Shown here piece by piece: positions 14,975 to 51,371 of a stretch of DNA of 64,000 bases. The notes beneath the pieces were generated by a model that saw only the letters and a program-made list of their open reading frames with translations, was not told the DNA's origin and did not search any database. Both the position numbers and the translations under genes were made by a program. This stretch comes from Patescibacteria group bacterium (lineage in GTDB: Bacteria; Patescibacteriota; Patescibacteriia; XYB2-FULL-38-15): contig JBGSRW010000008.1 of NCBI GenBank assembly GCA_041737355.1, forward strand, positions 191,061 through 255,060, written 5' to 3'. How positions within the stretch are numbered: the stretch's first letter is position 1; every line of letters starts with the position of its first letter.

Positions 14975-16567
14975 TTAAATTAACTCCGTACCGGTCATCT
15001 CTCCCGGTTTCGGTACGCCTATAATTTTTAAAATCGTCGGAGCCACGTCGGCTAAAATTCCGACCGGGGAAACCAAACTCAAATCTCTCCCCGAGGTGCC
15101 TCCGGCCTGCCCTTCAAACCCCCGTCCGGCAATAACCAAAGGAACGGGATTTGTACTGTGCTCTTTGTCAATTTCACCCGTCTGCAAATTGGCTACTTCT
15201 TCGGCGTTACCATGATCGGCGGTCATCATAAGAACTCCCCCGAGAGGCAAAATTATATTTGCTATTTCTCCGACGCAAAAATCGACCGCTTCCGCCGCCT
15301 TGACCGTCGCTTCGATATTCCCGGTATGTCCGACCATATCCGCGTTGGCAAAATTAACGACAATAAAATCGTATTTTTGCGAGCTTATCGCTTTTACCAA
15401 TGAATTTTTGACTTCCGTCGCCGACATCTCGGGTTTCTGGTCGTAAGAAGCGACGCGCGGTGAGGGAATAATAATACGGTCTTCCCCGGGAAATTCCTCT
15501 TCCCTCATACCGTTGAAAAAGAATGTAACATGAGCATATTTTTCCGTTTCGGCGATATGCAGCTGTTTTAATCCCGCCTCGCTCAAAACTTTAGCCAAAC
15601 AAGTCCTGACTTCGTCCGGAGGAAAAACAACCTTGACCGGCAGGCCCTTTTCATATTCCGTCATTGTCGCAAAAAAAAGATTGTGGAATTTTTTTACTTC
15701 CGGAAATTTATCAAAATTATCGCTGACAAAAGCTTTTGTCATTTCCCTGGCGCGGTCGGCGCGATAGTTGAAAAAAACGACCGCATCGTTATCTTCTACG
15801 GTAGCGACCGGTTTTTTACGTTCAGAAATTACGACCGGAACAAATTCTTCGTCATAAACTTTTTTTTCGTAAGAATCCCTGACCGCTTTTTTAGGATCGG
15901 AAAAATAATTATCGCTTTTCCCCAAGACAATAGCCTGATATGCCTTTTCGACTCTGTCCCAACGGTTGTCCCTGTCCATGGCGTAAAAGCGTCCCGAAAG
16001 TGTCGCTATTTTTCCTACCCCGCATTCCTTTATTTTTTCCTCCAATTTTGAAATAAAATCTATGCCGCTGTTAAAAATCGTATCACGTCCGTCTAGAAAC
16101 GCATGGATAAAAACTTTTTTTATTTTTTGATCGGCGGCAAATTTTAAAAGCGCATAAAGATGTTCTATTGTTGTATGGACCTTTCCGCTGCTCACAAGCC
16201 CCATGAGATGCAAATTTGATTTGTTGTATTTCACATGTCTGGCCGCGTCAAGCAAAACCGGGTTATCAAAAAAAGAACCATCACCAATGGATTTGTTTAT
16301 TTTTGGAAGAGTTTGATAAAATATTCTGCCGGTCCCGAGATTAAGGTGGCCGACTTCCGAAGTTCCCATTTCTCCCCAGGAAAGACCTACTTCGCCGCCC
16401 GAAGCCCGGAGGGTCATTGTCGGATAATTGGCAAAAATTCTATCGATATTCGGCGTCTTGGCGAGCATGATGGCATTCCCCGGCCCCGGAGGGGCAACAC
16501 CCCATCCATCCAATATAGCCAACACCACTGGTTTCTGACTCATAGATAAATTTATATCAAAAATCAA
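14975..16567 (-). CDS. gpmI: 2,3-bisphosphoglycerate-independent phosphoglycerate mutase (copy 1)
   Basis: ILDGWGVAPPGPGNAI, TSEVGHLNLG (catalytic Ser), DGRDT. Likely true start at MSQKP (about 16540). Confidence 0.85.
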   Translation of the reverse strand: MIFDINLSMSQKPVVLAILDGWGVAPPGPGNAIMLAKTPNIDRIFANYPTMTLRASGGEVGLSWGEMGTSEVGHLNLGTGRIFYQTLPKINKSIGDGSFFDNPVLLDAARHVKYNKSNLHLMGLVSSGKVHTTIEHLYALLKFAADQKIKKVFIHAFLDGRDTIFNSGIDFISKLEEKIKECGVGKIATLSGRFYAMDRDNRWDRVEKAYQAIVLGKSDNYFSDPKKAVRDSYEKKVYDEEFVPVVISERKKPVATVEDNDAVVFFNYRADRAREMTKAFVSDNFDKFPEVKKFHNLFFATMTEYEKGLPVKVVFPPDEVRTCLAKVLSEAGLKQLHIAETEKYAHVTFFFNGMREEEFPGEDRIIIPSPRVASYDQKPEMSATEVKNSLVKAISSQKYDFIVVNFANADMVGHTGNIEATVKAAEAVDFCVGEIANIILPLGGVLMMTADHGNAEEVANLQTGEIDKEHSTNPVPLVIAGRGFEGQAGGTSGRDLSLVSPVGILADVAPTILKIIGVPKPGEMTGTELI

Positions 16568-16588
16568 AAAATTTTTTGATTTTTATTT

Positions 16589-18151
16589 TTATTCAAAAAG
16601 ACTTTTTCTCGTCATTTCTCTTGGCTGAACGATATCCATTATATCCAAAATAGTCGGGGCTACGTCGGCCAAAACTCCGTGGCGCAGCTTTCTTTTCTTT
16701 TTATTTTTAAAATTTGGCCCGGCTACAATAAGCGGCACGTGGTTAATTGAATGTTCAGTATTTATTTCTCCGGTCTTCGTATTGAGCATTTCTTCTACAT
16801 TGCCGTGGTCGGCCGTGATTATAGCCGTTCCATCCTTGCGAAAAACGCCCCTAATAATTTTCCCAACGCAAGCGTCAACCGCCCGAACCGCCTTGATGCC
16901 GGCGGCAAGGTTACCGGTATGCCCAATCATGTCCGGATTGCAAAAATTAACAGTGACAAAATCATAACGGCCGCTGTCAATACATCTTCTTACTTCGTAG
17001 GTAACGTTTTCCGCATTCATTTCCGGCTTTTCTTCGTAATGCGCCATGGGCGGAGACGGAACCCTTATTCTTTCTTCGCCATAGATAGGATCAGCGTTAC
17101 CTCCGTTAAAGAAATAAGTTATGTGGGCGTACTTTTCCGCTTCGGCAATATAAATTTGTCTCTTGTCGCGAAGCACCGCCGGCAGGGCGCTTAAAATATT
17201 GCGGGCTGGAAAAGCCGTCATAATGTGGGGCAAATCCGGACCAAAATCGGTCATGGCGGCAAAGACAATATTTTTGGCTATTTTTTTTCTTATGAACGAA
17301 CGGCTGTTTTTTTCCGTAAAATCTTTCTGGACAAAAGTTTTCGTAATTTCCCTGGCCCGGTCGGATCTCAAATTGAAAAAAATTATCACATCGTTATCCC
17401 CGATAGTCGCAATCGGCTTATGGTCGTTGGTGATAACTGTCGGAACAATAAATTCATCCGTTTCTCCGCGGTTATAGGCGGAGGCAATCGCGGCCTCGGC
17501 TGACTCGGCAATTACCCCCTGTCCCAAAACCATGGCATTGTATGCCGCCTCAATCCTTTCCCACTTCTTGATACGGTCCATGGCGTAAAAACGCCCCATT
17601 ATTGTCGCGATTTTTTCCGTACCGTGAAAATGGGCCTTTAGTTTCGGTAAAAGTTTGATAGCCGCGAATCTTGAAGAATCACGGCCGTCGGTGAAAAGAT
17701 GCAAAAATACCTTATCCGCCCCTTGCTGATTTATGAGATCGAGAACGGAATAAAGGTGGCTTGGAAAAGCGTGAGCCGACTCGCCGTTCGAAAGCAACCC
17801 CATAAGATGCACTTTTGATTTATTTTTTTGCGCGTGCTTAAGGGCTTCGATAAAAGCCGTATTTTTGAAAAAAGTACCATCTTTGATGCTTTCATTTATA
17901 TAAACCGAATCCTGCTTTACTATCCATCCGGCCGACAAATTCATATGCCCGGCTTCCGAGTTGCCTTCCTGATTCCCGGGCAAACCGGCCGCTCTCCCGT
18001 GAGCCGCGAGAAGCGCGCAGGGAAATTCATTCCAGAGTGCGGTCATCGTCGGAGTTTTCGCAAGAGTTACGGCGTTCCCCGGCCCGGGCGGCGCCACTCC
18101 CCAGCCGTCAAGTATTACAAGTACCGTAGGTTTTTTATGATTTTTGGGCAT
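16589..18151 (-). CDS. gpmI: 2,3-bisphosphoglycerate-independent phosphoglycerate mutase (copy 2, tandem paralog)
   Basis: ILDGWGVAPPGPGNAV, NSEAGHMNLS, DGRDS. About 40-50% identical to copy 1 by eye. Catalytic residues conserved. Confidence 0.85.
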   Translation of the reverse strand: MPKNHKKPTVLVILDGWGVAPPGPGNAVTLAKTPTMTALWNEFPCALLAAHGRAAGLPGNQEGNSEAGHMNLSAGWIVKQDSVYINESIKDGTFFKNTAFIEALKHAQKNKSKVHLMGLLSNGESAHAFPSHLYSVLDLINQQGADKVFLHLFTDGRDSSRFAAIKLLPKLKAHFHGTEKIATIMGRFYAMDRIKKWERIEAAYNAMVLGQGVIAESAEAAIASAYNRGETDEFIVPTVITNDHKPIATIGDNDVIIFFNLRSDRAREITKTFVQKDFTEKNSRSFIRKKIAKNIVFAAMTDFGPDLPHIMTAFPARNILSALPAVLRDKRQIYIAEAEKYAHITYFFNGGNADPIYGEERIRVPSPPMAHYEEKPEMNAENVTYEVRRCIDSGRYDFVTVNFCNPDMIGHTGNLAAGIKAVRAVDACVGKIIRGVFRKDGTAIITADHGNVEEMLNTKTGEINTEHSINHVPLIVAGPNFKNKKKRKLRHGVLADVAPTILDIMDIVQPREMTRKSLFE

Positions 18152-19080: not shown

Positions 19081-20328
19081 TTATTTTATTAACGGTTTAA
19101 TTCCTGGTAATATTTTCCCTTCCAAAAATTCAAGCATGGCTCCCCCGCCCGTGGAAATATGATCGATATATCCGGCCATACCAGTTTTTTCTATCGCCTC
19201 TATTGTCTCTCCGCCGCCAACAACCCCGAAAACCTTGCCTTTTGACCGCGCCGCGACAAGTTGACCGAGGGCGATTGACCCATGGCTGTATTTAGGAATT
19301 TCAAAATATCCCATCGGACCGTTCCAGACGATGGTCTGGGCGCGTCTTATAATTTCCGCGTACTTCCTTACCGTTTCAGGGCCAACATCCAAAAGAGCGT
19401 AAGGTTTTTTGCAAAGCTCGGCCTTCTTGCCCGGGACTTTGACTACCCAGGCTTTTTTGCCTTTGAAATCTCCGGCGACAAAATCAACCGGCAAAATTAT
19501 TTTTTTGTTGGCCAGCAATTTTTTCGCAGTTTTAATTTCTTTCTCTTCAAAGACCGAACCGCCGATGCCGTATCCGGCCGCTTTGAAAAAATTATTAACC
19601 AGCGCGCCGCCAAGAAGGATATTGTTCACTTTTTTAAGAAGATTTTCTATGACTCCGATTTTTGTGGAAATTTTCGCTCCGCCGATCATCGCCATAAATG
19701 GCTTTTTTGGCTTAGTAAGCAGCCCGCTTAAAACATTGATTTCTTTTTCCATGAGAAATCCGGCGTAGCTCGGCAAGAATTTCGTCACACCGACGATTGA
19801 GGCGTGTGCCCGATGCGCCGCGGCGAAAGCGTCATTAACGTAAATATCGGCTAAGCCCGCAAGCCCCTTGGCGAATTTCAGATCGTTTTTTTCTTCACCC
19901 GGATCAAAACGTAAATTTTCAAGCAAGATCAATTCTCCATTTGCCATGGCGTCAATTTTTTCCAAAGCTTTTTTTCCTTCCCAGTTGGCCGGAGCAATCC
20001 CTTGCATTCTTAAAATCTTGGCAAGCGCCGCGCCGACCGGTCTCAAACTCAAATCCGCTTTTATTTTTCCGCCCGGGTCGCCCAAGTGGCTTATCAAAAT
20101 AATTTTTGCTCCTGCCGCGAGAAGATAGTTTATAGTCGGAACGGCCGCGACAATTCTCGTATCGTCTGCGACAGTAATTTTTCCGCCGGCTTTTCCAAGT
20201 GGCACATTAAAATCAACCCGGAGCAAAACCTTTTTGCCCTTCAGCTCCTTAATCTCCTTTATTGTTTTGAGTTTCATAAACTTAAAATTAATACGTATAA
20301 AAATATTTTTGGTAACATTATTTCTCAC
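19081..20328 (-). CDS. pgk: Phosphoglycerate kinase
   Basis: KKVLLRVDFNVPL N-terminal signature, GGGA hinge motifs. True start probably the internal MKLKTIKE at about 20277. Confidence 0.9.
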   Translation of the reverse strand: MRNNVTKNIFIRINFKFMKLKTIKEIKELKGKKVLLRVDFNVPLGKAGGKITVADDTRIVAAVPTINYLLAAGAKIILISHLGDPGGKIKADLSLRPVGAALAKILRMQGIAPANWEGKKALEKIDAMANGELILLENLRFDPGEEKNDLKFAKGLAGLADIYVNDAFAAAHRAHASIVGVTKFLPSYAGFLMEKEINVLSGLLTKPKKPFMAMIGGAKISTKIGVIENLLKKVNNILLGGALVNNFFKAAGYGIGGSVFEEKEIKTAKKLLANKKIILPVDFVAGDFKGKKAWVVKVPGKKAELCKKPYALLDVGPETVRKYAEIIRRAQTIVWNGPMGYFEIPKYSHGSIALGQLVAARSKGKVFGVVGGGETIEAIEKTGMAGYIDHISTGGGAMLEFLEGKILPGIKPLIK

Positions 20329-20575
20329 CTTCTATTTCTTCGAGTTCCCATGACGGCTTATCAATTTTTTCCACCATGATTTCGGCGTTTTTTGCCAAAC
20401 TATCTTTTGCCAAAAGATGGATGTTAAATTTTAAATTTTCCGGATCGATTTCCGAACCGTGTTCAATAACGCTTCCCAAACCGATTTTAATTTTTGTCAC
20501 TTCCTTGAGGCCGTTCTGCTTGGCATGCTCCAAAACCATTTTTAAAATTCTGTCGGCTTCGTGTAAATCGTGCAT
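20318..20575 (-). CDS. HypA-like hydrogenase maturation protein lacking the zinc-finger
   Basis: 85 aa. N-terminus MHDLHEADRILKMVLEHAK matches the HypA MHE..S nickel-binding N-terminus, but no CxxC...CxxC zinc site is present. Immediately downstream of hydA. Confidence 0.45.
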   Translation of the reverse strand: MHDLHEADRILKMVLEHAKQNGLKEVTKIKIGLGSVIEHGSEIDPENLKFNIHLLAKDSLAKNAEIMVEKIDKPSWELEEIEGEK

Positions 20576-20576
20576 A

Positions 20577-21860
20577 TTAATGTGTCGCGCAGGTCATGCA
20601 AGGATCGTAAGCGCGAACCATCATATTGATTTTCCACTTTCTGTCGCGCTCGTCTTTGACCCTCGCTTCGCTTAAATATTTTTTTAAATCGTTTTCCAAA
20701 TTGTCCAAAAATTGGGCGGTCGGCGTAATGATGTTGCAGGCGCGAATCACCCCGTATTTGTCGATTTTGTAATAATGATAAAGCGTTCCGCGCGGTGCCT
20801 CGGTGGCTGCCAGCCCTTCGCCATTTTTCATTGTATATTTCACGGATAAAATTCTTGATTTTTCCTTAAGATATTCTCCAAGCAGTTTTTTAACTTCCTC
20901 AACGCAGCTAACTAATTCCACCGCCTGGGCGTAAATATTGTGGAAAGTATTATAAGTCAAAACTTTTTCGCCCGCCGATTTTTCAAAAAACGGCAAAAAC
21001 TTTTTTGCTTCGCTGCCGAGATTTTTATGGCTCAAATTAAGCCGGGCAATCGCCCCGAGCATAAAACTTTTTCCCTCGTGGCTGGCGCGTTTTGTCGGGT
21101 CGTCTTCGGATTGTTTTTCTGAAAGTTCTTTATAAAATTCTTCCACTGAAGTTTTCGGCTGAACGCTTGAACCCATTTTCCCGTCGTAAAAAGCGTACTC
21201 GCGCGGCGAAACTAGTCCAGCAAATTCAACCTTGCGTTCGTATTTCGGATAATCAAGGGCGCGGAAAAATTTTGCCACGCTGATTGCCGCCGCCAAAACT
21301 TCATCCGCCTCGTCAATTAACTCCTGCAGCAATTTATCGTCGGGAATTTTCCGGAAACCGCCGATTTCCGTGGCTAGCAAATGCATATCGCGCCCGCCGA
21401 CCACGTCTTTTATTTTATTGCCAAAATCACGGATTAAAATAATCTGTTTGGCGAGATCTGGATATTTTTTAATCAAATCAATATCGCTCTCGTATTTAAA
21501 AAAGTCCGACAAGGACAAAAAGAAAAGATGGGCGGCGTGGCTCTGGATAGGCTCTGCTAAATCTAAAACTTTCCTTAGTCGCTCTGCCTGCGGTGTAATT
21601 TTCACGCCAAAGGCCTGCTCGATCGCCTTGATACTTGTAAGATTATGGGCGACTGAGCAGATTCCGCAGATGCGCGAAGTAACAATCGGCGCTTCGATAA
21701 AATGACGATCGAGAATTATTGACTCGATGAGCCGGGCTCCAATTTTTATTTTAATCTTGGCGCTTGTGATATCGCCCCGGAGCATATCGGCAAAAAAACT
21801 GGCGTGTCCCTCGATTTTCGCAAGATGTGAAATTTTTATTTTCATAATACTATTCCTCAA
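20577..21860 (-). CDS. hydA: [NiFe]-hydrogenase large (alpha) subunit, group 3-like
   Basis: N-terminal RICGICSVAH (RxCGxCxxxH) and C-terminal DPCMTCATH (DPCxxCxxH) Ni-Fe ligand motifs. 427 aa is typical of cytoplasmic group 3 enzymes. Confidence 0.9.
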   Translation of the reverse strand: MRNSIMKIKISHLAKIEGHASFFADMLRGDITSAKIKIKIGARLIESIILDRHFIEAPIVTSRICGICSVAHNLTSIKAIEQAFGVKITPQAERLRKVLDLAEPIQSHAAHLFFLSLSDFFKYESDIDLIKKYPDLAKQIILIRDFGNKIKDVVGGRDMHLLATEIGGFRKIPDDKLLQELIDEADEVLAAAISVAKFFRALDYPKYERKVEFAGLVSPREYAFYDGKMGSSVQPKTSVEEFYKELSEKQSEDDPTKRASHEGKSFMLGAIARLNLSHKNLGSEAKKFLPFFEKSAGEKVLTYNTFHNIYAQAVELVSCVEEVKKLLGEYLKEKSRILSVKYTMKNGEGLAATEAPRGTLYHYYKIDKYGVIRACNIITPTAQFLDNLENDLKKYLSEARVKDERDRKWKINMMVRAYDPCMTCATH

Positions 21861-22608
21861 GTTTCAAAAAATCGTCTTCTGCGCCGTATGTTTCCATCAC
21901 TTCGGCCAGATATTTTTTTCCGACTAATTTTTCCAAATTTTTTATATGCTTCTTAATCTGCGGTCCGGATCCAGGAAGCGGCCCGCGGCAGCCGTAGCAG
22001 AATCTTTTGCTCCTAAGACAAACCGCCTTACATCCGCCAAGCGTAATCGGCCCCAAACATGGTTCACCTTTTTGCAGGAGGCACTCATATCCTAGCGTCT
22101 GGCATTCAAAACAGATTGGGCGGACGGGAATTTTCGGTTTCCGGCCAAAAGCTAAATCAGAAACTATCCGGTAAAATTCGTCCTGGTCAATCGGGCAACC
22201 GGGAACGGCGTAATCAACTTCTACCACCTTCCAGAGCGGCACGACGGCCGGATTTTCAATCCGCTGGTATTTTGGGTAAACATATTTAACTTTTTCTTTT
22301 TTCCCATGTTCGGTATAATTTTTTATTTCCTGAACACCGCCCAAATGGGCACAGGAACCGATCGCTACTAAAATTTTCGATTTCTTCCGCAATTCTTTTA
22401 GATATTTAAAATCTTCATGGGTGAGCGGCGTGCCTTCAACCAACGCCACGTCGTATTTCGGTCTCTCCCGCTTTTCCTCGGCCCAGGCAAAATTTCCCAA
22501 ATCAAAAATCTGAAAAAGATCGAGCATTCTTTTCCCCAAATTCAGGATCTCAACCTGGCATCCCTCGCAGCAAGTCATGCTGGCAATCGCAAGCGTCGGT
22601 TTTTTCAT
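21850..22608 (-). CDS. hydD: [NiFe]-hydrogenase small (delta) subunit
   Basis: Starts MKKPTLAIASMTCCEGCQVE. Cys clusters for proximal/medial FeS clusters. Overlaps hydA by 11 nt. Confidence 0.85.
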   Translation of the reverse strand: MKKPTLAIASMTCCEGCQVEILNLGKRMLDLFQIFDLGNFAWAEEKRERPKYDVALVEGTPLTHEDFKYLKELRKKSKILVAIGSCAHLGGVQEIKNYTEHGKKEKVKYVYPKYQRIENPAVVPLWKVVEVDYAVPGCPIDQDEFYRIVSDLAFGRKPKIPVRPICFECQTLGYECLLQKGEPCLGPITLGGCKAVCLRSKRFCYGCRGPLPGSGPQIKKHIKNLEKLVGKKYLAEVMETYGAEDDFLKLEE

Positions 22609-22611
22609 AAA

Positions 22612-23115
22612 CTATTTTAATAATTCAACTATTTTTTCTCCAAAACTTCGCGCCGCGTCCGGTCCTGAAGCGGTAATAATTTTCCCGTCGGCCTCTACTG
22701 GCGCGCCGGTGTATTCCGCCCCGCCCGCCGCCAGAGTTTCTTCCTCGTCGGGCGTCGAAGTCGCTTTCACCCCCGAGAGAAGGCCGGCTTTGGCCAAAAT
22801 CGCCGGAGCAAGGCAAATTGCCGCGACAATTTTCCCGGCATCAAAAAACTCCCGCGCCAGATCATGAACCCTCTCGTCATCAAGATAAACTTCCGCGCCC
22901 CGTCCGCCAACCAAAACTATCGCCGAAAAATCATCAAGCTCCGCGTCGTCAACCGTCAGATCCGGCATTACTGTTCCGCCGAGCCGCCCTTTTGCCAAAG
23001 TCAATTCCTGGCTCGCGACCTCGACATCAATCCCTTTTTTTATAAAAACATCCCTCGGTTCAAAAAATTCCTCATCACGAAAATCTTTTTGCGCGACAAC
23101 CATTAAAATTTTCAT
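22612..23115 (-). CDS. DJ-1/PfpI family protein
   Basis: 167 aa. AICLAPAILAKAG nucleophile-elbow region typical of DJ-1/PfpI. Confidence 0.75.
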   Translation of the reverse strand: MKILMVVAQKDFRDEEFFEPRDVFIKKGIDVEVASQELTLAKGRLGGTVMPDLTVDDAELDDFSAIVLVGGRGAEVYLDDERVHDLAREFFDAGKIVAAICLAPAILAKAGLLSGVKATSTPDEEETLAAGGAEYTGAPVEADGKIITASGPDAARSFGEKIVELLK

Positions 23116-23121
23116 AAAAAT

Positions 23122-24006
23122 CTATTTTATAAAAATTGAAAACAAAAATCCCAGAACCGAGAAAAAAGCCAAGGGCGGCAGGGCCGGCATGGGCGTTTTT
23201 TGCGGCTGGGTCGTGAAAAGGACATGGAGCACCACCAAACCGACAAGCGATCCGGCAATCGTGAAAACCGCGCTCTCCAAACCGTAGGAAATCGCAGAAA
23301 CCGCCAAAATCAAGGGCAAAATCAAATCCCCTGTTCCCAAAAACATAAACTCGTTGCCCGGCGCGACCTTGGACAAATTAACCGCCCAGCCCCGCCACTT
23401 CATTGGAAAAATCAGAGCCATGATTACTCCCCTCACGACCAGCTCTTTGAACATCATGACCATTTGGGCCGTTTTATAAACCGCGATGTAATCGTAAATG
23501 GAAATCAAAAATAAAATAACAAGAATCGCCGAAATAGGCAGAGACAAGCCAAAGGCGGCCCCAATGCCGGCAACCCCTAAAATAACCGCCAGATTATGGA
23601 ACCAGACGCGAGGCAGGACAAACTGGAGAACGACAAAAATTATTGCCAAGCCAACCGAAAATATTGTCGGCAAAAAAATACTGAAAACCGTCTGGGATCC
23701 TAAAAAAATTATCAAAGCGAAAATTCCCCTGAAAAAAGAACCGCCTTTTATAAATCTCAGGGAAATGATCAGAAGAATCGTGGCAATAACAAAAGAAATC
23801 AAGAATTCCCAAAGAGAGGTGGCTATTTTTATTTCTGCGAATGCCTCATAGCTCATCAAGCGCATGGCGGCCCAAAGCCCGATGATCTGAACCAGGCCGA
23901 AAACAACCAATTCCTGAAATAAAAATTTGCCTTTGAAGACGGGCGAAACGGGCATGATTTTAATCTTAAATTCTGGTTGATTAAACTTAACTTTATTATA
24001 GCACAT
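23122..24006 (-). CDS. Presenilin / signal-peptide-peptidase-like GxGD intramembrane aspartyl protease
   Basis: 294 aa, about 8-9 TM helices. YD motif (ISIYDYIAV), GxGD motif (FLGTGDLILPL) and a C-terminal PAL motif (MPALPPLAFF), in the order characteristic of the A22 family. Confidence 0.55.
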   Translation of the reverse strand: MCYNKVKFNQPEFKIKIMPVSPVFKGKFLFQELVVFGLVQIIGLWAAMRLMSYEAFAEIKIATSLWEFLISFVIATILLIISLRFIKGGSFFRGIFALIIFLGSQTVFSIFLPTIFSVGLAIIFVVLQFVLPRVWFHNLAVILGVAGIGAAFGLSLPISAILVILFLISIYDYIAVYKTAQMVMMFKELVVRGVIMALIFPMKWRGWAVNLSKVAPGNEFMFLGTGDLILPLILAVSAISYGLESAVFTIAGSLVGLVVLHVLFTTQPQKTPMPALPPLAFFSVLGFLFSIFIK

Positions 24007-24042
24007 TTCGGGAACCTCTTAAAACTGGTATAATTTTATCGT

Positions 24043-24669
24043 ATGCTATTAGAAAACAGGGCTGAAGCAGGCCAAAAATTGGCTGAATTGCTGAAACAAT
24101 TCAAAGACGCCAAAGAAACAATAATCATCGCCTTGCCGCGCGGCGGGGTTGTAGTCGGCTTCGAAGTGGCAAAAGAACTAAATCTCCCGCTGGATATTGT
24201 CGTGCCGCGAAAAATCGGCGCGCCGGGCAATCCCGAATTTGCCATCGGCGCCATAACAGAGTCGGGCGAAATGATTTTGAATGAAGAAGTTTTTGGAATT
24301 TCGGAAAGTTATTTGAAAAGCGAGACGGAAAAGGAAAGGGCCGAGGCGGAACGGAGATTAAGACTCTACCGCGGCAGCCGTCTGCCGCTTGATTTAGAAA
24401 ACAAAACCGTTATCCTGATTGACGACGGCCTGGCCACCGGGCTTACCATGCGGGCGGCTATTTCGAGCGTCAAAAAAATGAAGGCGAAAAAAATTATTGT
24501 CGCCGTGCCAATTGCTCCGCCCGAGACAGTGGAATTGATAAAAAAAGAAACTGATGAAATATTTTATCTTGAGGCTCCCCTGCTCTTCGGCGCCGTCGGG
24601 GCGTTTTACAAAGAATTCGGCCAGACGACTGATGAAGAAGTGATTGATTTGTTGAAAAAATCTGAATAG
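24043..24669 (+). CDS. Type I phosphoribosyltransferase-domain protein
   Basis: 208 aa. PRPP-binding loop VILIDDGLATGLTM. Two PRTase-fold halves. Confidence 0.7.
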   Translation: MLLENRAEAGQKLAELLKQFKDAKETIIIALPRGGVVVGFEVAKELNLPLDIVVPRKIGAPGNPEFAIGAITESGEMILNEEVFGISESYLKSETEKERAEAERRLRLYRGSRLPLDLENKTVILIDDGLATGLTMRAAISSVKKMKAKKIIVAVPIAPPETVELIKKETDEIFYLEAPLLFGAVGAFYKEFGQTTDEEVIDLLKKSE

Positions 24670-24752: not shown

Positions 24753-24878
24753 AGTTTATCCCCCAGACTTGTCCTTGCAGGTGTGGAGGTAAAAAAATCC
24801 CGCATGAAACTTGCGTAACACGCGGGAAAGCAGCAGTTTTGTCCAAGAGACCTAGAAGGGCCTAGGTTTCAAGAACCA

Positions 24879-25487
24879 CTACTTGTGGACGGCCAAGAAC
24901 CGGTAATGATCGCTCCATTCGATGCCGACCCAGAGTACGAAAAGGTGCCGCTCGTTGAGGCGCCAGTCGAGACAGGCGAAGAAGCGGCCGCCGTGCCGAT
25001 CCATGAAGTGCGAGCCGAGAGCCACGATCCCGAACTCCTTCTGGAGCTCGGGACGAGCGGCGCCGAGGGCCAAGAGCTCTTCGATCTTGGCCGGACGGAG
25101 GCCGCGACGGGCGAGTTCCGCGAGAATTTCGTCGGTCGAGGCCATCTTGTTCATGTGAACGAGGACGAGCTCGCGGAGGACCTTGCCCTCGCCCGAGATC
25201 GGGAAGAACCCGGGGGTGATGTCATCGTTCACGAAGTCGTAGCGGCCGGAGGCGATCATTGCCTCGAGGCTCTGACCATAGTCGACCTCGACCTTGAAGG
25301 TCGCGTCGGAAGGGAGGGCCGCCTTCACCATGGCGATTTCCGCCTGGCCCTTGACGAGAGGCAGCAACCGCGCGAGCAGGTCTCCTTCGGAGAGCCGCTT
25401 CACGTCGGCGTTGGTCCAGCCGTTCCGGCCGAAAGCCATTGCCAGCTCATGGGCCTGGCCAGTTGTCATCTTGAACTCGTCACTCAT
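24879..25487 (-). CDS. Hypothetical protein, paralog family member 1 (GC-rich cassette B)
   Basis: 202 aa. Shares the block GRYDFVNDDIT ... RGLRPAKIEELLALGA.RPE.QKEFGIVALGS ... RFLAV with the protein at 42762-43395. Confidence 0.5.
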   Translation of the reverse strand: MSDEFKMTTGQAHELAMAFGRNGWTNADVKRLSEGDLLARLLPLVKGQAEIAMVKAALPSDATFKVEVDYGQSLEAMIASGRYDFVNDDITPGFFPISGEGKVLRELVLVHMNKMASTDEILAELARRGLRPAKIEELLALGAARPELQKEFGIVALGSHFMDRHGGRFFACLDWRLNERHLFVLWVGIEWSDHYRFLAVHK

Positions 25488-25547
25488 GACTTGTTCTCTT
25501 TCTTTCTCGCAACCGATTCAATCCGAACCCCGTTGCTGTCTTTGGCC

Positions 25548-25564
25548 GAGAGAAATTCCCAGCC
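25548..25564 (-). promoter_or_regulatory. Conserved 17-nt leader motif (minus-strand GGCTGGGAATTTCTCTC), copy 1
   Basis: Identical 17-mer also present at 43522-43538, upstream of the paralogous gene. Lies in the 5' leader of 24879-25487. A candidate minus-strand TTGACA sits at 25597-25602. Confidence 0.4.
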
Positions 25565-25659
25565 AACGAATTATTAAATCATTCTTTGGATATTTTGTCA
25601 ACACCTTTTTAAATAAAAAAGAGCTAGCTTCAAAAGCCAGCTCAAGGAAAAGAAAAGAA

Positions 25660-26418
25660 TCAGTTGCGCTTGCCGTTCTCGGCTATCTTCCGGCAGGCGG
25701 TGAGAGTCGCTTCGGTCCAGTGTTCAAGCCGGCGCGCTTCATTGAGCGTGATGACTTCGACTACCCTGCCCCAGTGAAAAGCAACCAAGTCGCCAGCTCT
25801 GATACGCGGAATAATCTGCGGATCGCGCCGGACAAGACGCTTTTTTTCTTTTTCTTCCAGCTCTGCCAGGAATCTGTTACCCTCGTGCTTCAGAGATCTT
25901 GCCGAAACGGTAAGCTCCGGCCCCTTGCCAACCGAGACGACTTTTCCCCAGCCGATGCGACAAAGCTCCCAGCCGACCGATTCGCGATCCACCTGACCAG
26001 AAATTCCGCCGATTGCGAGAACATGAAAACTGTGGTGCGGCCGGTGCTGATAGTGGACGTGGTCCGTGGTTTCTTTCGCTGCCGCCTCGGTCATCCGGCC
26101 CTCGCCGACAAAACCGAATATCAGCTCCCTCAGATCTTCCGGCCGGACACGGCCGAGGAGTTCGTTGCCAATCCAGTAGGCGTCAACCACGCGGTCGTCA
26201 AGCCAGTCTTCGATTCCGTTTGCCGCGGCAATGAGCTTCAGGTAGGCCGTGGCCGCGGTAAACTGCCCCAAGAGCCGCCTTGCATGATTGTCGTCGACCT
26301 TGCTCTTGGTCGTGAGATACTGGTATAGCTTGCCCTTCTCACTGCCCCGCGGCCCGCAAAGGCCGAGTTCGTTCGGGTAAAGCGCGTAACGCGCCGCCCG
26401 CTCGTATTTCTTTCCCAT
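25660..26418 (-). CDS. Hypothetical His-rich protein translationally coupled to hypC (GC-rich)
   Basis: 252 aa. ATG is 1 nt after the hypC stop, and the hypC 3' end (gggggagaggaggaaaaaa) provides its RBS. Contains a His cluster HVHYQHRPHHSFH. GC-rich, unlike hypC. Confidence 0.5.
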   Translation of the reverse strand: MGKKYERAARYALYPNELGLCGPRGSEKGKLYQYLTTKSKVDDNHARRLLGQFTAATAYLKLIAAANGIEDWLDDRVVDAYWIGNELLGRVRPEDLRELIFGFVGEGRMTEAAAKETTDHVHYQHRPHHSFHVLAIGGISGQVDRESVGWELCRIGWGKVVSVGKGPELTVSARSLKHEGNRFLAELEEKEKKRLVRRDPQIIPRIRAGDLVAFHWGRVVEVITLNEARRLEHWTEATLTACRKIAENGKRN

Positions 26419-26652
26419 CTATTTTTTCCTCCTCTCCCCCTGATTTTGGAATTCGTCCAGGACGGCAAGGCAATTTTTCGCCTCCTCTTCGGAAATTTTT
26501 TTCATTCCAATGCTGCCTTGCACCAATATCCAATCACCTTTTGCCGCTTCCGGCAAGAGTGAAGTGTCAATATCAAAAACTTTGCCGCCATTTTTAACGG
26601 CGGCTTTATTTTTCTTGATTTTTTCAATTTTACAAGGAATACCGAAGCACAT
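26419..26652 (-). CDS. hypC: Hydrogenase maturation chaperone HypC/HupF
   Basis: 77 aa starting MCFGIPCKIEKI (the essential N-terminal Cys2 motif MC[LF][GA]IP). Confidence 0.8.
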   Translation of the reverse strand: MCFGIPCKIEKIKKNKAAVKNGGKVFDIDTSLLPEAAKGDWILVQGSIGMKKISEEEAKNCLAVLDEFQNQGERRKK

Positions 26653-27606: not shown

Positions 27607-28425
27607 TTAAATCGCTCCGCGGATATCTTTTATTTGGTCCCAGGAAAAAACCGGACCGTCCTGGCAGACAAAGAAACTTCCGACCGCGCAATGGTTGCAA
27701 ACCCCGACCCCGCAGTGCATCCGCCGTTCGAGTGACATAAAAATATCTTCGTCTTTGAACCCTGCTTTATTTAATTTTTCCAGAACAAATTTATACATAA
27801 CCGGCGGGCCGCAGAGAAACGCGACTGGGTTTTCGGCAAGCGGCGCCTTGTCAAATAAAACCGTAACCAAACCCTGAATTATTGGACAAGATAATTTAAA
27901 TTTATCCGTCGGCTTATCAAGACACAAATGAAAATCAACATCATTTTTCATCCATGAATCGTATTCTTTCCGGAAAAGCAGGTCGTCTTCGGTTTTTGCC
28001 CCGTAAAAAATCTGGACTTTTTTATATTGTTTCCTGTTTTTTACGATTTCAAAAATCGCCGTCCGGACCGTTTCAAGGCCAAGTCCGCCAACAACGATTA
28101 AGAGATTCCTCTTCTTCGCCAGTTCCGCGGGAAACGGCCGGCCGTACGGCCCGCGGACGCCGACTCTGTCCCCCGCCTTGAGGGAATGCATTGCCGCGGT
28201 TACCGTTCCGACATTTCTCGCGCAAACCTGAAATTTATTTTTTTCTGACGCGTCGGAGCAAAGGCAAAAGGGCGCCTCGCCAAATCCCGGCAAAGATATT
28301 TCCACGAACTGACCCGACTGGTATTTGAAATTTTTTGGCGCTTCAAGGGTAAACAATTTTGAATTTGAACCCTCGTCCTCGATTTTCAAAATCCTTACCG
28401 TTTGCGGCGCGTATTGATTTTTCAT
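27607..28425 (-). CDS. hydG: Hydrogenase gamma subunit (FAD/NAD(P)H-binding, [2Fe-2S]; PyrK-like)
   Basis: 272 aa. Ferredoxin-reductase-like FAD/NAD domains. C-terminal CGVGVCNHCAVG [2Fe-2S] motif. Confidence 0.8.
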   Translation of the reverse strand: MKNQYAPQTVRILKIEDEGSNSKLFTLEAPKNFKYQSGQFVEISLPGFGEAPFCLCSDASEKNKFQVCARNVGTVTAAMHSLKAGDRVGVRGPYGRPFPAELAKKRNLLIVVGGLGLETVRTAIFEIVKNRKQYKKVQIFYGAKTEDDLLFRKEYDSWMKNDVDFHLCLDKPTDKFKLSCPIIQGLVTVLFDKAPLAENPVAFLCGPPVMYKFVLEKLNKAGFKDEDIFMSLERRMHCGVGVCNHCAVGSFFVCQDGPVFSWDQIKDIRGAI

Positions 28426-29387
28426 AATTTTGCCAGAACTTTAAAAATATTTATTCCCACCGGACAAACCTTGGCGCAGCGGCCGCAGCCGACGCAGCCC
28501 ATAATTTGCAATTGGTCGGGAATTCGGACGAATTTATGGTAATACCAGAAATGGATCCGGTCGGCGGTAGTTTTTAAAAACTTTTGCCCGCCCCCCACTT
28601 CGGAAAAATCATTGTAAAAACAGGCTCCCCAGCTCCGCTTTCTGACTCCGCCATCGTCTGTCAGATTTGGCTGATCTTTAACATCAAAACAAAAACAGGT
28701 CGGACAAACCATGGTACATTTTCCGCACTCAATACAACGCGCCCCGAGATCGTCTTCCCAAATTTCTTTTTTATAAATCTTTTTCAGGGCGTCGCGGTAT
28801 TTTATCATTTGCGGATCCTTTCCTTCTTCTCTTATCGGCCCGGAAAATTGGATATGCTCGTAATCCTTGTAACCGAATTCATCAAGAATCTTTTGCCCAT
28901 CCTCCGAACCGGTATAAACAAAATAATTTTTCCCTTGGACTTCAAGGAAAATATCAAACTGCAGATGTTCTAAAATATCTTCCTCGTATTTAATATGAAA
29001 AAGATTATGCTCGGCCTCGGCAGGAATCAAACTCTGCCCGACAATCAAAGTATTTTTCATCCGCTCCTGATACCAGAGATCTTTTTCGAAAATATGGTTG
29101 AACAAAACTATTGCTTTGAGATCAATCGGATTTATCCCAAAAATTACCTGCTTCCTCGCTTTCTTCACTTCGATCATCCTGTCTTTTTTGTATTCAAAAA
29201 TAACTTCTTCCGGCGGCAGCAAAAACCGTTTGAAAGAATGAAGCGGCGGTTCTTTAACGAGCTTCACTTTTGAGGCGTCTTCAACTTTGGCGTAAGCCAC
29301 TTCGTCTTTTTGTTTTTCCGGTGCGAAAACATCATATCTCCGCTTCATCAAAAAACTAATAAATTTTTGCAGTTGTCCGTGGGTCAT
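28422..29387 (-). CDS. hydB: Hydrogenase beta subunit (4Fe-4S ferredoxin-type)
   Basis: 321 aa. CIECGKCTMVCPTCFCFD and CVGCGRCAKVCPVG iron-sulfur motifs. Overlaps hydG by 4 nt. Confidence 0.8.
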   Translation of the reverse strand: MTHGQLQKFISFLMKRRYDVFAPEKQKDEVAYAKVEDASKVKLVKEPPLHSFKRFLLPPEEVIFEYKKDRMIEVKKARKQVIFGINPIDLKAIVLFNHIFEKDLWYQERMKNTLIVGQSLIPAEAEHNLFHIKYEEDILEHLQFDIFLEVQGKNYFVYTGSEDGQKILDEFGYKDYEHIQFSGPIREEGKDPQMIKYRDALKKIYKKEIWEDDLGARCIECGKCTMVCPTCFCFDVKDQPNLTDDGGVRKRSWGACFYNDFSEVGGGQKFLKTTADRIHFWYYHKFVRIPDQLQIMGCVGCGRCAKVCPVGINIFKVLAKL

Positions 29388-49982: not shown

Positions 49983-51371
49983 ATGGAAGAAAAATACAAA
50001 CGAAAGATTTATACCCTGGAAGGATTGTCCCCGGAAGTCCGGGCCGTTACTTTTGCCAAATGCAGCCGCTCGCCGGAATCATTCGCCGACATCGCCAAGG
50101 AACTGACCGAACAAAAATCCAGCGAGTTTCACGAGAAATGGGTTGTCGGCTACGGCCATTCTTCGGTCGCCGAGCACGCCATTTTATCATTGGCACTGGA
50201 AAACGTTTCGATTCTGGCCACCAAAGTAATCGAAGACAACCGTCTGGCCTCCTACACGGAAAAATCGACACGCTACCAGGTTTTTGATCGCGAAAAGTAT
50301 TACAAACCGAAAAAAATAATGGATTCTTCGTTCGGCAAACTCTACGAAGAAACGGCGAATTTTCTTTTTGATACCTACACCGATCTTACCGCCAAGGTAA
50401 TGAATTACGTAAAAAACAAAATTCCAAAAACCGAAGAGATGACGGATAAAATGTATGAAACTGTCTGCAAGGCAAAGGCCTGCGATATTGTCCGCTATAT
50501 TTTACCGACCGCCACTCTTACCAATCTCGGTATGACAATAAACGCCCGGAACCTCGAACACGCTATCGCGAAATTGCTGTCGCATCCGCTCGAAGAAATG
50601 CAGGATATCGGGCGGGAACTGAAAGAAGCGGCGGAAAAAGCGACCCCGACCCTTATCAAATACGCCAACGCGAATAATTATCTTCGCGAAACAAATCTTT
50701 CTCTCGAAAAAACGACCAAGAAAATTTTGGGCGGAGAAAATGTCGCCCCCGAAGAAAACCAAGCCAAACTTGTCGCCTACGACGAAGACGCACTTGACCG
50801 CGTCGTCGCTCCCCTGCTCTACAAATATTCAAACTCTTCATACGGGGATATCAAGGAAAAAGTTAAAAATTTGCCGCGAGAAGAAAAAGAAAAAATCCTT
50901 GAGGAATCACTGGAAGGAATGAGCCAATTCGACCGGCCGCTCCGCGAACTTGAACACACCTATTACACTTTCGATATTTTGATCGACTACGGCGCCTTCC
51001 GCGACGTCCAGCGGCATAGAATCTGCACCCAAACCAACCAGGAAATCACCCCGGCTTACGGTTACTCGACCCACGAAGACATTGTCGCCGCCGGATTTCA
51101 AAAAGAATACGAAGAGTGTATGAAGCGGGCTGCCGAAATTTACCAAAAAATTGCCGCGGAATTTCCCAAGGAAGCCCAATATATCCTGCCGCTCGCCTTC
51201 CGTAAACGGGTCCTTATCACCTGGAACCTCCGCGAACTTTTCCATTTTATTCCGCTCCGGAGCAGCAAGAAAGGCCATATTTCCTACCGCCGGATCGCCG
51301 GACAAATCTGGGACGAAATAAATCGCGTCCATCCGTATTTTGCTAAATATATTAAAGTCGATAAATCTTAA
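49983..51371 (+). CDS. thyX: Flavin-dependent thymidylate synthase ThyX, tandem-duplicated (pseudo-dimeric) form
   Basis: 462 aa. C-terminal half carries the RHRxxxxxxxS ThyX motif (RHRICTQTNQ...S). N-terminal half is ThyX-like (HSSVAEHAILSLALENVS...STRYQ) but lacks RHR. Confidence 0.7.
   Translation: MEEKYKRKIYTLEGLSPEVRAVTFAKCSRSPESFADIAKELTEQKSSEFHEKWVVGYGHSSVAEHAILSLALENVSILATKVIEDNRLASYTEKSTRYQVFDREKYYKPKKIMDSSFGKLYEETANFLFDTYTDLTAKVMNYVKNKIPKTEEMTDKMYETVCKAKACDIVRYILPTATLTNLGMTINARNLEHAIAKLLSHPLEEMQDIGRELKEAAEKATPTLIKYANANNYLRETNLSLEKTTKKILGGENVAPEENQAKLVAYDEDALDRVVAPLLYKYSNSSYGDIKEKVKNLPREEKEKILEESLEGMSQFDRPLRELEHTYYTFDILIDYGAFRDVQRHRICTQTNQEITPAYGYSTHEDIVAAGFQKEYEECMKRAAEIYQKIAAEFPKEAQYILPLAFRKRVLITWNLRELFHFIPLRSSKKGHISYRRIAGQIWDEINRVHPYFAKYIKVDKS

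Follow-up and report, generated by a model that had tools for sequence, protein, structure and literature searches.

The gene described here very probably encodes a 277-aa, nine-helix A22 intramembrane aspartyl protease of the prokaryotic PSH type (PF06550), carried by a Falkowbacteria-like CPR bacterium and expected to work by the di-aspartyl mechanism outlined below. It lies in a 64,000-nucleotide stretch of DNA, called the window hereafter, and the preliminary description of it proved essentially right, both in what was observed and in how it was interpreted. By analogy with its relatives, the protein would most likely function as a stand-alone di-aspartyl intramembrane protease. Presenilin, to which it is related, is an Alzheimer's-linked protease that cleaves within membranes, and presenilin-type proteases are medically central. 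The gene is a further, uncharacterised example of the already recognised prokaryotic PSH-type A22 proteases in CPR, a group of very small uncultured bacteria, and not a new system.

The coding potential of the locus consists of an uninterrupted open reading frame of 294 codons (294 aa), located at 23122-24006 on the reverse strand, exactly as in the preliminary description. The true start is probably M18 of this frame (ATG at 23955), which would yield a protein of 277 aa. This start is favoured because the close homologues are all 277 aa long and begin with 'MP..' at the equivalent of M18, because the upstream ATG is overlapped by a promoter-like element (24022-23995), and because the first residues of the long frame are modelled at very low confidence. 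The extension ahead of M18 (23956-24006) is probably untranslated. The putative promoter (23995-24022) is a candidate driver of the whole string of genes that runs from PSH through DJ1, HydD, HydA and HypA to PGK. Neither the tRNA nor the Rfam scan of the 64-kb window returned a match. The features at this end of the gene are the following:

23122-23955, reverse strand: predicted coding sequence (probable) of a PSH-type presenilin/SPP-family intramembrane aspartyl protease homologue, 277 aa, with M18 as the start.
23956-24006, reverse strand: 17-codon N-terminal extension of the longest reading frame, missing in all homologues, with a pLDDT below 50 at residues 1-5 and an upstream ATG lying within the promoter-like element.
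23995-24022, reverse strand: sigma-70-like promoter candidate, TTAAGA-16 nt-TGcTATAAT, retrieved by a consensus scan (10/12 matches plus an extended -10 TG; a consensus match only).

The preliminary description had proposed a presenilin/SPP (A22) identity, and this clan is indicated alike by the sequence, the profiles, and the fold. In Pfam, the protein matches PF06550 ('Signal-peptide peptidase, presenilin aspartyl protease', SPP), which is the archaeal PSH family, at 64.3 bits (E 1.7e-17), where the gathering cut-off is 23.9. The match is nearly full-length, residues 41-291 being aligned with positions 11-278 of a 283-position model, and the sole other Pfam match (EssA, E 0.24) is noise. The NCBIfam search yielded a single match, NF041679 ('presenilin family intramembrane aspartyl protease PSH'), with 71.2 bits, a score that does not reach the equivalog cut-off of 125 bits. 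The protein would, therefore, belong to a divergent subfamily rather than being an equivalog of archaeal PSH, and functional equivalence with the latter is an extrapolation. When all PDB sequences were searched with phmmer, the only significant match was PSH/MCMJR1 (4HYC, E 1.2e-11), in an alignment that pairs the YD, the GxGD, and the proline-rich P-x-L-P region. A profile of the clade matches PSH with an E-value of 8.5e-35 and human presenilin-1 with an E-value of 8.9e-5, and in the latter alignment YD falls on Y256-D257, GTGD on GLGD, and PALP on PALP 433-436.

The preliminary description had looked to the Peptidase_A22B and presenilin models for confirmation, which was obtained from the archaeal PSH-type model PF06550 and not from the two eukaryotic models, Presenilin (PF01080) and Peptidase_A22B (PF04258), neither of which gave a match at E<=10. 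A stronger match to an unrelated transporter family, one of the two outcomes that it had set against its own proposal, did not occur; no other family outscores presenilin/SPP. The type IV prepilin peptidases and FlaK (MEROPS A24) are the other GxGD proteases, and the usual ones in bacteria. They have in common with the present protein the GxGD di-aspartyl mechanism and a polytopic membrane architecture, but their fold and family differ and they are devoid of the PAL motif; no match to them was found in the Pfam, PDB-sequence, or fold searches. Taken together, the scores indicate that the family match is not due to chance.

The claimed motif order, YD ... GTGD ... PAL, can be read directly from the sequence, at the following positions:

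23491-23496, reverse strand: codons of Y171-D172, the first catalytic Asp motif, in TM6; aligned with the YD of PSH and with Y256-D257 of presenilin-1.
23326-23337, reverse strand: codons of G224-T225-G226-D227, the GxGD motif, which supplies the second catalytic Asp and sits where TM7 starts; aligned with the GMGD of PSH and the GLGD of presenilin-1.
23176-23187, reverse strand: codons of P274-A275-L276-P277, the PAL(P) motif before TM9; aligned with PALP 433-436 of presenilin-1.

Conservation was assessed with an alignment of 45 homologues, in which the mean column identity is 36%. Nine residues, namely Y171, D172, A175, P201, G224, G226, D227, P231, and P277, are invariant in this sample, and P274 and A275 are conserved at a level of at least 90%. 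Such a pattern indicates selection on the catalytic apparatus, and speaks against the copy being decayed or having a structural role only. It also bears on a non-proteolytic role (channel or scaffold), which has been proposed for presenilins and for MCMJR1. A protein that has kept the presenilin fold while acting mainly as, for example, a cation leak channel or a scaffold is conceivable from the water-filled cavity of this fold, with nothing specific in favour of such a role. Both catalytic aspartates, like the glycines of GxGD, are, however, invariant amid this overall divergence, as catalytic selection predicts, and a mainly non-proteolytic action is considered very improbable. A widely conserved KTKHM stretch follows the YD motif; the present protein and the relative closest to it have KTAQM/KTSQM there.

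The AlphaFold2 model, built from the 45-sequence alignment, has a mean pLDDT of 90.7 and a pTM of 0.88. It contains nine long helices (residues 26-51, 65-85, 89-108, 114-130, 134-155, 158-179, 225-241, 243-266, and 276-293), in agreement with the nine-TM architecture and with the location of YD and GxGD in TM6 and TM7 that the preliminary description had put forward. YD lies inside helix 158-179 (TM6), GTGD opens helix 225-241 (TM7), and PAL stands just before helix 276-293 (TM9). As modelled, this placement of the motifs on nine helices is the defining arrangement of the presenilin/SPP family, and motifs outside the predicted helices, the other outcome that would have counted against the proposal, are not what the model shows. 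A Foldseek comparison of the model with the PDB gave a consistent picture, the top 23 matches (23/23) being PSH, SPPL2a, or presenilin-1/2.

Membrane orientation was estimated with the positive-inside rule, by counting Lys and Arg on alternate loops, as delimited by the model helices, throughout the 45-sequence alignment. On average, 17.1 such residues are found on the N-terminus and loops 2, 4, 6, and 8, vs. 3.5 on loops 1, 3, 5, and 7 and the C-terminus, and the sign of this bias is identical in all of the sequences (45/45). Because of this charge distribution, the rule predicts an N-in/C-out orientation with a cytoplasmic 45-residue TM6-TM7 loop, which is presenilin-like and not the inverted arrangement of SPP. 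The orientation of SPP is opposite to that of presenilin and correlates with the type of substrate, type II vs. type I, respectively (PMC2947513). This link between enzyme and substrate orientation is a correlation among eukaryotic enzymes and not a rule established for prokaryotes.

The closest characterised relative is PSH/MCMJR1 from Methanoculleus marisnigri (PDB 4HYC, 4HYG, and 4Y6K; PF06550), with an overall identity of ~22-27%. The present protein differs from it by its bacterial host, by a Thr instead of a Met as the X of GxGD, and by a shorter TM6-TM7 loop. Its motif is a genuine P-A-L-P, at a place where PSH reads A-G-L-P-P-L in the alignment, and it has a conserved H-N pair in TM5 that is peculiar to the CPR clade. 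With human SPPL2a and the signal peptide peptidases (MEROPS A22B; PDB 9K92 and 9K93), the identity is 16%, PF04258 is not matched, the luminal PA domain is absent, and the predicted membrane orientation is opposite (PMC2947513). Compared with presenilin-1/-2, the catalytic subunit of gamma-secretase (MEROPS A22A), the protein does not match PF01080 and has neither the long cytoplasmic loop nor the endoproteolysis site, while the partners nicastrin, APH-1, and PEN-2 are not expected in a bacterium.

A mechanism can be proposed from these relatives. As in MCMJR1/PSH and presenilin/SPP, D172 (TM6) and D227 (TM7) would be opposed across a water-accessible cavity within the bilayer. As judged from MCMJR1/PSH and the eukaryotic enzymes, this aspartate pair would hydrolyse a peptide bond within the TM helix of a substrate that spans the membrane once and comes in from the side. 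By analogy, the enzyme would work alone, with no need for nicastrin, APH-1, or PEN-2, and with no endoproteolysis of the short 45-aa TM6-TM7 loop. MCMJR1 itself is an active stand-alone GxGD protease that is inhibited by a transition-state analogue (PMC2947513). The N-in orientation suggested by the charge distribution would, in turn, make N-out/C-in (type I) membrane stubs, rather than signal peptides, the preferred substrates. Natural substrates have not been established even for the archaeal enzymes (PMC2947513, PMC9263693).

The same enzyme could alternatively act as a signal-peptide peptidase, as the name of the Pfam family would suggest, clearing the membrane of signal peptides (N-in/C-out, type II) that remain after secretion and replacing SppA or RseP in a reduced genome. 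The positive-inside analysis bears directly on this role, as it gives the presenilin orientation (N-in), opposite to that of SPP (PMC2947513). In addition, the premise that SppA/RseP have been lost is seen against 64 kb of genome only, and signal-peptide processing by prokaryotic PSH is not reported in either of two papers on these enzymes (PMC2947513, PMC9263693). A signal-peptide role is, thus, regarded as rather unlikely.

The gene was said to be located inside a split hydrogenase locus, which is indeed the case. PSH leads a compact string of genes, followed in order by a DJ-1/PfpI gene, the hydrogenase small subunit, the hydrogenase large subunit, a short HypA, and PGK; adjoining genes are separated by, or share, no more than 11 nt. 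The second half of the hydrogenase lies about 3.6 kb further on, past a hypothetical ORF, DUF6390, HypC, and an EamA transporter. The main neighbours are listed below:

20318-20575, reverse strand: short HypA (Pfam PF01155).
20577-21860, reverse strand: [NiFe]-hydrogenase large subunit (Pfam PF00374).
21850-22608, reverse strand: [NiFe]-hydrogenase small subunit (Pfam PF01058); together with the large subunit, it forms the 20577-22608 half of the locus.
22612-23115, reverse strand: DJ-1/PfpI-family gene, 6 nt downstream of PSH (Pfam PF01965, E 2.9e-41).
24043-24669, forward strand: phosphoribosyltransferase (PRT), divergent from PSH (Pfam PF00156); the commonest retained neighbour of PSH in CPR loci (13/40).
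27607-29387, reverse strand: FAD/NAD-binding and 4Fe-4S hydrogenase subunits, constituting the other half of the locus (Pfam PF10418/PF00175/PF00970 and PF17179).

The DJ-1/PfpI gene is probably co-transcribed with PSH. This tight packing, at the head of a PSH-DJ1-HydD-HydA-HypA string in which no gap exceeds 6 nt and which is kept in four Falkowbacteria-type loci (L001-L004), could suggest that PSH is tied to the [NiFe]-hydrogenase, through maturation, membrane tethering, or turnover of its components, possibly together with the DJ-1/PfpI protein. Such a tie is largely refuted by about 35 more distant CPR loci, which have PSH but lack both hydrogenase and DJ-1 genes in the +/-8 kb around it; their neighbours are PRT, archease/RtcB, YkuD, and DnaE instead. 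Other observations go in the same direction: the large subunit ends in ...DPCMTCATH and offers a protease no C-terminal extension to cut off, the subunit composition is that of a soluble-type hydrogenase, and the DJ-1 homologue has Cys-Leu (AAICLAP) in place of the Cys-His of the PfpI proteases. A function tied to the hydrogenase is, consequently, deemed extremely improbable. Because the split-locus arrangement and the PSH/DJ-1 adjacency are kept only in the close Falkowbacteria-type relatives, the hydrogenase context offers no functional clue, and the place of PSH in this string looks incidental: the genome is compact, and the order of these genes is particular to the lineage. A two-step protease made of PSH and the DJ-1/PfpI protein was also considered, and rejected, as the DJ-1 homologue is devoid of the Cys-His pair and the pairing is found only in close relatives.

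For a wider view of the neighbourhood, the ORFs located within +/-6 kb of PSH were clustered across 40 CPR loci. Recurrent neighbours are PRT (13 loci), RtcB (12 loci, most of them with archease), DnaE (11 loci), PRPP synthetase (9 loci), YkuD L,D-transpeptidase (9 loci), and an unannotated membrane ORF of 117 aa (9 loci). No neighbour is universal and none points to a substrate or partner; the deduction of a function from the gene neighbourhood was, therefore, abandoned and the recurrent neighbours were treated as lineage synteny. An apparent tandem duplication of PSH turned out to be an artefact of single-linkage clustering, the extra ORFs being archease.

The bacterium that carries the gene is Falkowbacteria-like and belongs to the CPR (Patescibacteria). 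The genes of the window are bacterial (EF-Ts, ribosomal proteins S2, L1, and L25, PSP1, Fpg, GyrB, NusG, RF-1, PrmC, FtsW, GatB, MiaA, MiaB, and ThrRS), and the nearest genomic relatives are Candidatus Falkowbacteria MAGs (Patescibacteria/CPR), in which the surrounding genes occur in the same order, with 58-87% amino-acid identity. Given that the family is mainly archaeal and that two genuine DPANN contigs have a copy with 40% identity, the gene could in principle belong to an archaeon and have been placed in a bacterial contig by an assembly or binning error. It lies, however, midway in a 64-kb window of normally spaced bacterial genes, and the PRT-PSH-DJ1-HydD order is repeated in independent Falkowbacteria assemblies. 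Moreover, the locus is found unchanged in an independent Logan assembly, and between 22 and 24 kb the GC content is in the usual range of the window. The probability of an archaeal contaminant is, thus, practically nil.

The preliminary description had called the family rare and patchily distributed in bacteria. This holds for bacteria overall but not within CPR/Patescibacteria, where a large and recurrent clade is found (652 clusters at E<=1e-30). A word-indexed search retrieved 50 homologues, and an exhaustive profile search retrieved 2137 clusters (50% identity) at E<=1e-3, including the 652 that pass the stricter threshold. In species-representative genomes, about 40 bacterial loci have a homologue, with 33-78% identity and nearly all in Patescibacteria, in a sample that is biased to CPR-like sequences by the scan itself, which used peptide patterns of the CPR clade (close homologues). 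The CPR carriers comprise Falkow-, Azam-, Uhr-, and Buchananbacteria, Paceibacterota, and Parcubacteria; two of the bacterial loci lie on contigs of 65% GC whose labels read Binatia and Vicinamibacterales. The archaeal copies are mostly 21-28% identical to the present protein.

Annotation of these proteins varies. Several members of the clade are named 'presenilin-like A22 family membrane protease' at JGI, while a close Falkowbacteria homologue is labelled 'hypothetical protein' at NCBI, probably due to the clade scoring under the PSH equivalog cut-off. Among the papers searched, presenilin and CPR/Patescibacteria were jointly mentioned only in gut-microbiome studies. The 2021 survey by Raut, Glass, and Lieberman is said to report IAP orthologues in uncultivated CPR bacteria and to propose their transfer from DPANN archaea. 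To our knowledge, that survey describes neither the present protein nor the hydrogenase locus in which it lies in Falkowbacteria.

Two archaeal copies stand out by their proximity to the bacterial ones. Those of loci L008 and L012, labelled Undinarchaeota/UBA543, are the copies with 40% identity, and they are located on genuinely archaeal contigs, which encode MCM, aIF2-beta, and Topo VI-B. In a neighbour-joining (NJ) tree, a split uniting the bacterial sequences with L008 and L012 is recovered in 72/100 bootstraps, and the bacteria alone in 4/100. The next archaeal sequences out are L047, L052, and the Micrarchaeota sequence L051. An MCM gene is found directly upstream of PSH in L008, L012, L047, L051, and L052, and this shared MCM-PSH order implies that the archaeal copies occupy a conserved DPANN locus. 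According to the tree, the nearest archaeal relatives of the CPR clade are DPANN archaea. The tree and the shared gene order favour a DPANN-to-CPR transfer, with deep branch supports that are weak as to the direction and the number of transfers. Co-transfer of PSH with archease/RtcB from archaea was rejected, since the archaeal PSH loci have MCM as the adjoining gene, and not RtcB or archease. As a separate observation, a DPANN-to-CPR transfer agrees with the proposal attributed above to Raut, Glass, and Lieberman.

A bolder reading would combine origin, orientation, and substrate. The CPR clade could represent a 'bacterial presenilin' in its own right, reduced to a minimum and obtained by transfer from an Undinarchaeota-like DPANN archaeon. 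It would be oriented N-in and act alone on type I stubs and not on signal peptides, a candidate class being the C-terminal anchor remnants that result from sortase-type processing in these monoderm, surface-protein-rich episymbionts. In this complete form, the reading is speculative, and it is considered unlikely to a marked degree.

The gene is one more instance and brings no new principle, given that the family and its motifs are documented, and that its presence in CPR reportedly is as well. It illustrates the sharing of genes between ultra-small symbionts, the CPR bacteria and the DPANN archaea. Many annotations would be mended by a model built specifically for the CPR clade. With 277 aa, a short loop, and an intact predicted active site, this bacterial enzyme could serve as a convenient minimal model of presenilin-type proteases. 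If the type I stub reading were true, such stubs would represent the first physiological substrate class for any prokaryotic presenilin homologue, and the protein would be the smallest tractable model enzyme with the presenilin orientation.

The genes flanking the presenilin/SPP-type protease homologue (PSH) differ between Patescibacteria (CPR) and archaea. In one CPR sub-lineage, PSH, archease, and the RNA ligase RtcB are encoded directly one after the other, an order that was not found in the archaeal PSH loci. In DPANN-type archaeal contigs, by contrast, the gene directly upstream of PSH encodes an MCM helicase, and those archaeal sequences that are nearest to the bacterial PSH clade share this conserved pairing.

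Conserved neighbourhoods of PSH homologues in other genomes (L, locus handle)
PSH-archease-RtcB, CPR loci L013, L017, L018, L022-L024, L030, L032, and L033: at about 8.7-10.8 kb in each locus
MCM helicase-PSH, Undinarchaeota-type archaeal contig L008: 5924-8819
MCM helicase-PSH, Undinarchaeota-type archaeal contig L012: 5996-8891
MCM helicase-PSH, also in L047, L051, and L052

Members of this bacterial PSH clade (34-43% identity) are also carried by two contigs of 65% GC, L036 and L037, labelled Binatia and Vicinamibacterales, the PSH gene of L037 adjoining an adenylate kinase gene. Either the clade occurs sporadically outside CPR too, or these contigs are mis-binned. In the Falkowbacteria MAG ETS170220_bin_59, two contigs (L002 and L004) each bear a block of phosphoribosyltransferase, PSH, DJ-1/PfpI-family, and hydrogenase small subunit (HydD) genes. 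Their PSH products share 63% (L002) and 59% (L004) identity with the window protein, and either the locus is duplicated in this genome or two populations are mixed in the bin.

Between the two halves of the window's split hydrogenase locus, positions 24850-25500 form an island of 62-64% GC in a genome of about 45% GC, which contains two long antiparallel ORFs, neither of which has a Pfam match.

Long ORFs of the GC-rich island
24879-25487, minus strand: antiparallel to the following ORF
24885-25577, plus strand: antiparallel to the preceding ORF, and the one chosen by the public assembly's gene caller

A piece of about 60 aa of the minus-strand ORF is found again between HydD and the large subunit gene (HydA) in two close Falkowbacteria-type loci, L003 and L004, with 62-73% identity. 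This recurrence, together with the GC-rich composition, suggests that the island is a mobile or horizontally acquired element.

Within the hydrogenase locus, a DUF6390 gene (25660-26652, about 60% GC) directly adjoins HypC, an adjacency also present in L002, and may encode a hydrogenase-maturation accessory. The [NiFe]-hydrogenase large subunit (within 20318-21860) ends exactly in ...DPCMTCATH, without a C-terminal extension, and a maturation endopeptidase is therefore not needed. The adjoining HypA has only 85 aa, matching model positions 1-68 of 112, and contains none of the cysteines for the usual zinc site. PGK and GAPDH genes are also interspersed among the hydrogenase genes, and two cofactor-independent phosphoglycerate mutase genes stand in tandem at 14975-18151 (530 and 520 aa), these paralogues being only about 45% identical, as judged from cross-hits to L003.

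Elsewhere in the window, ThyX (49983-51371) has 462 aa, about twice the usual length, and two stretches matching Thy1, which points to an internal duplication or a fusion in this flavin-dependent thymidylate synthase. At 68-2510, an ECF-type sigma factor gene is followed by one for a FecR-domain protein of 621 aa that also has a glucodextranase-B-like domain. The two are a sigma/anti-sigma pair, with no site-2 protease observed in the 64-kb window; pairs of this kind are normally controlled by regulated intramembrane proteolysis.
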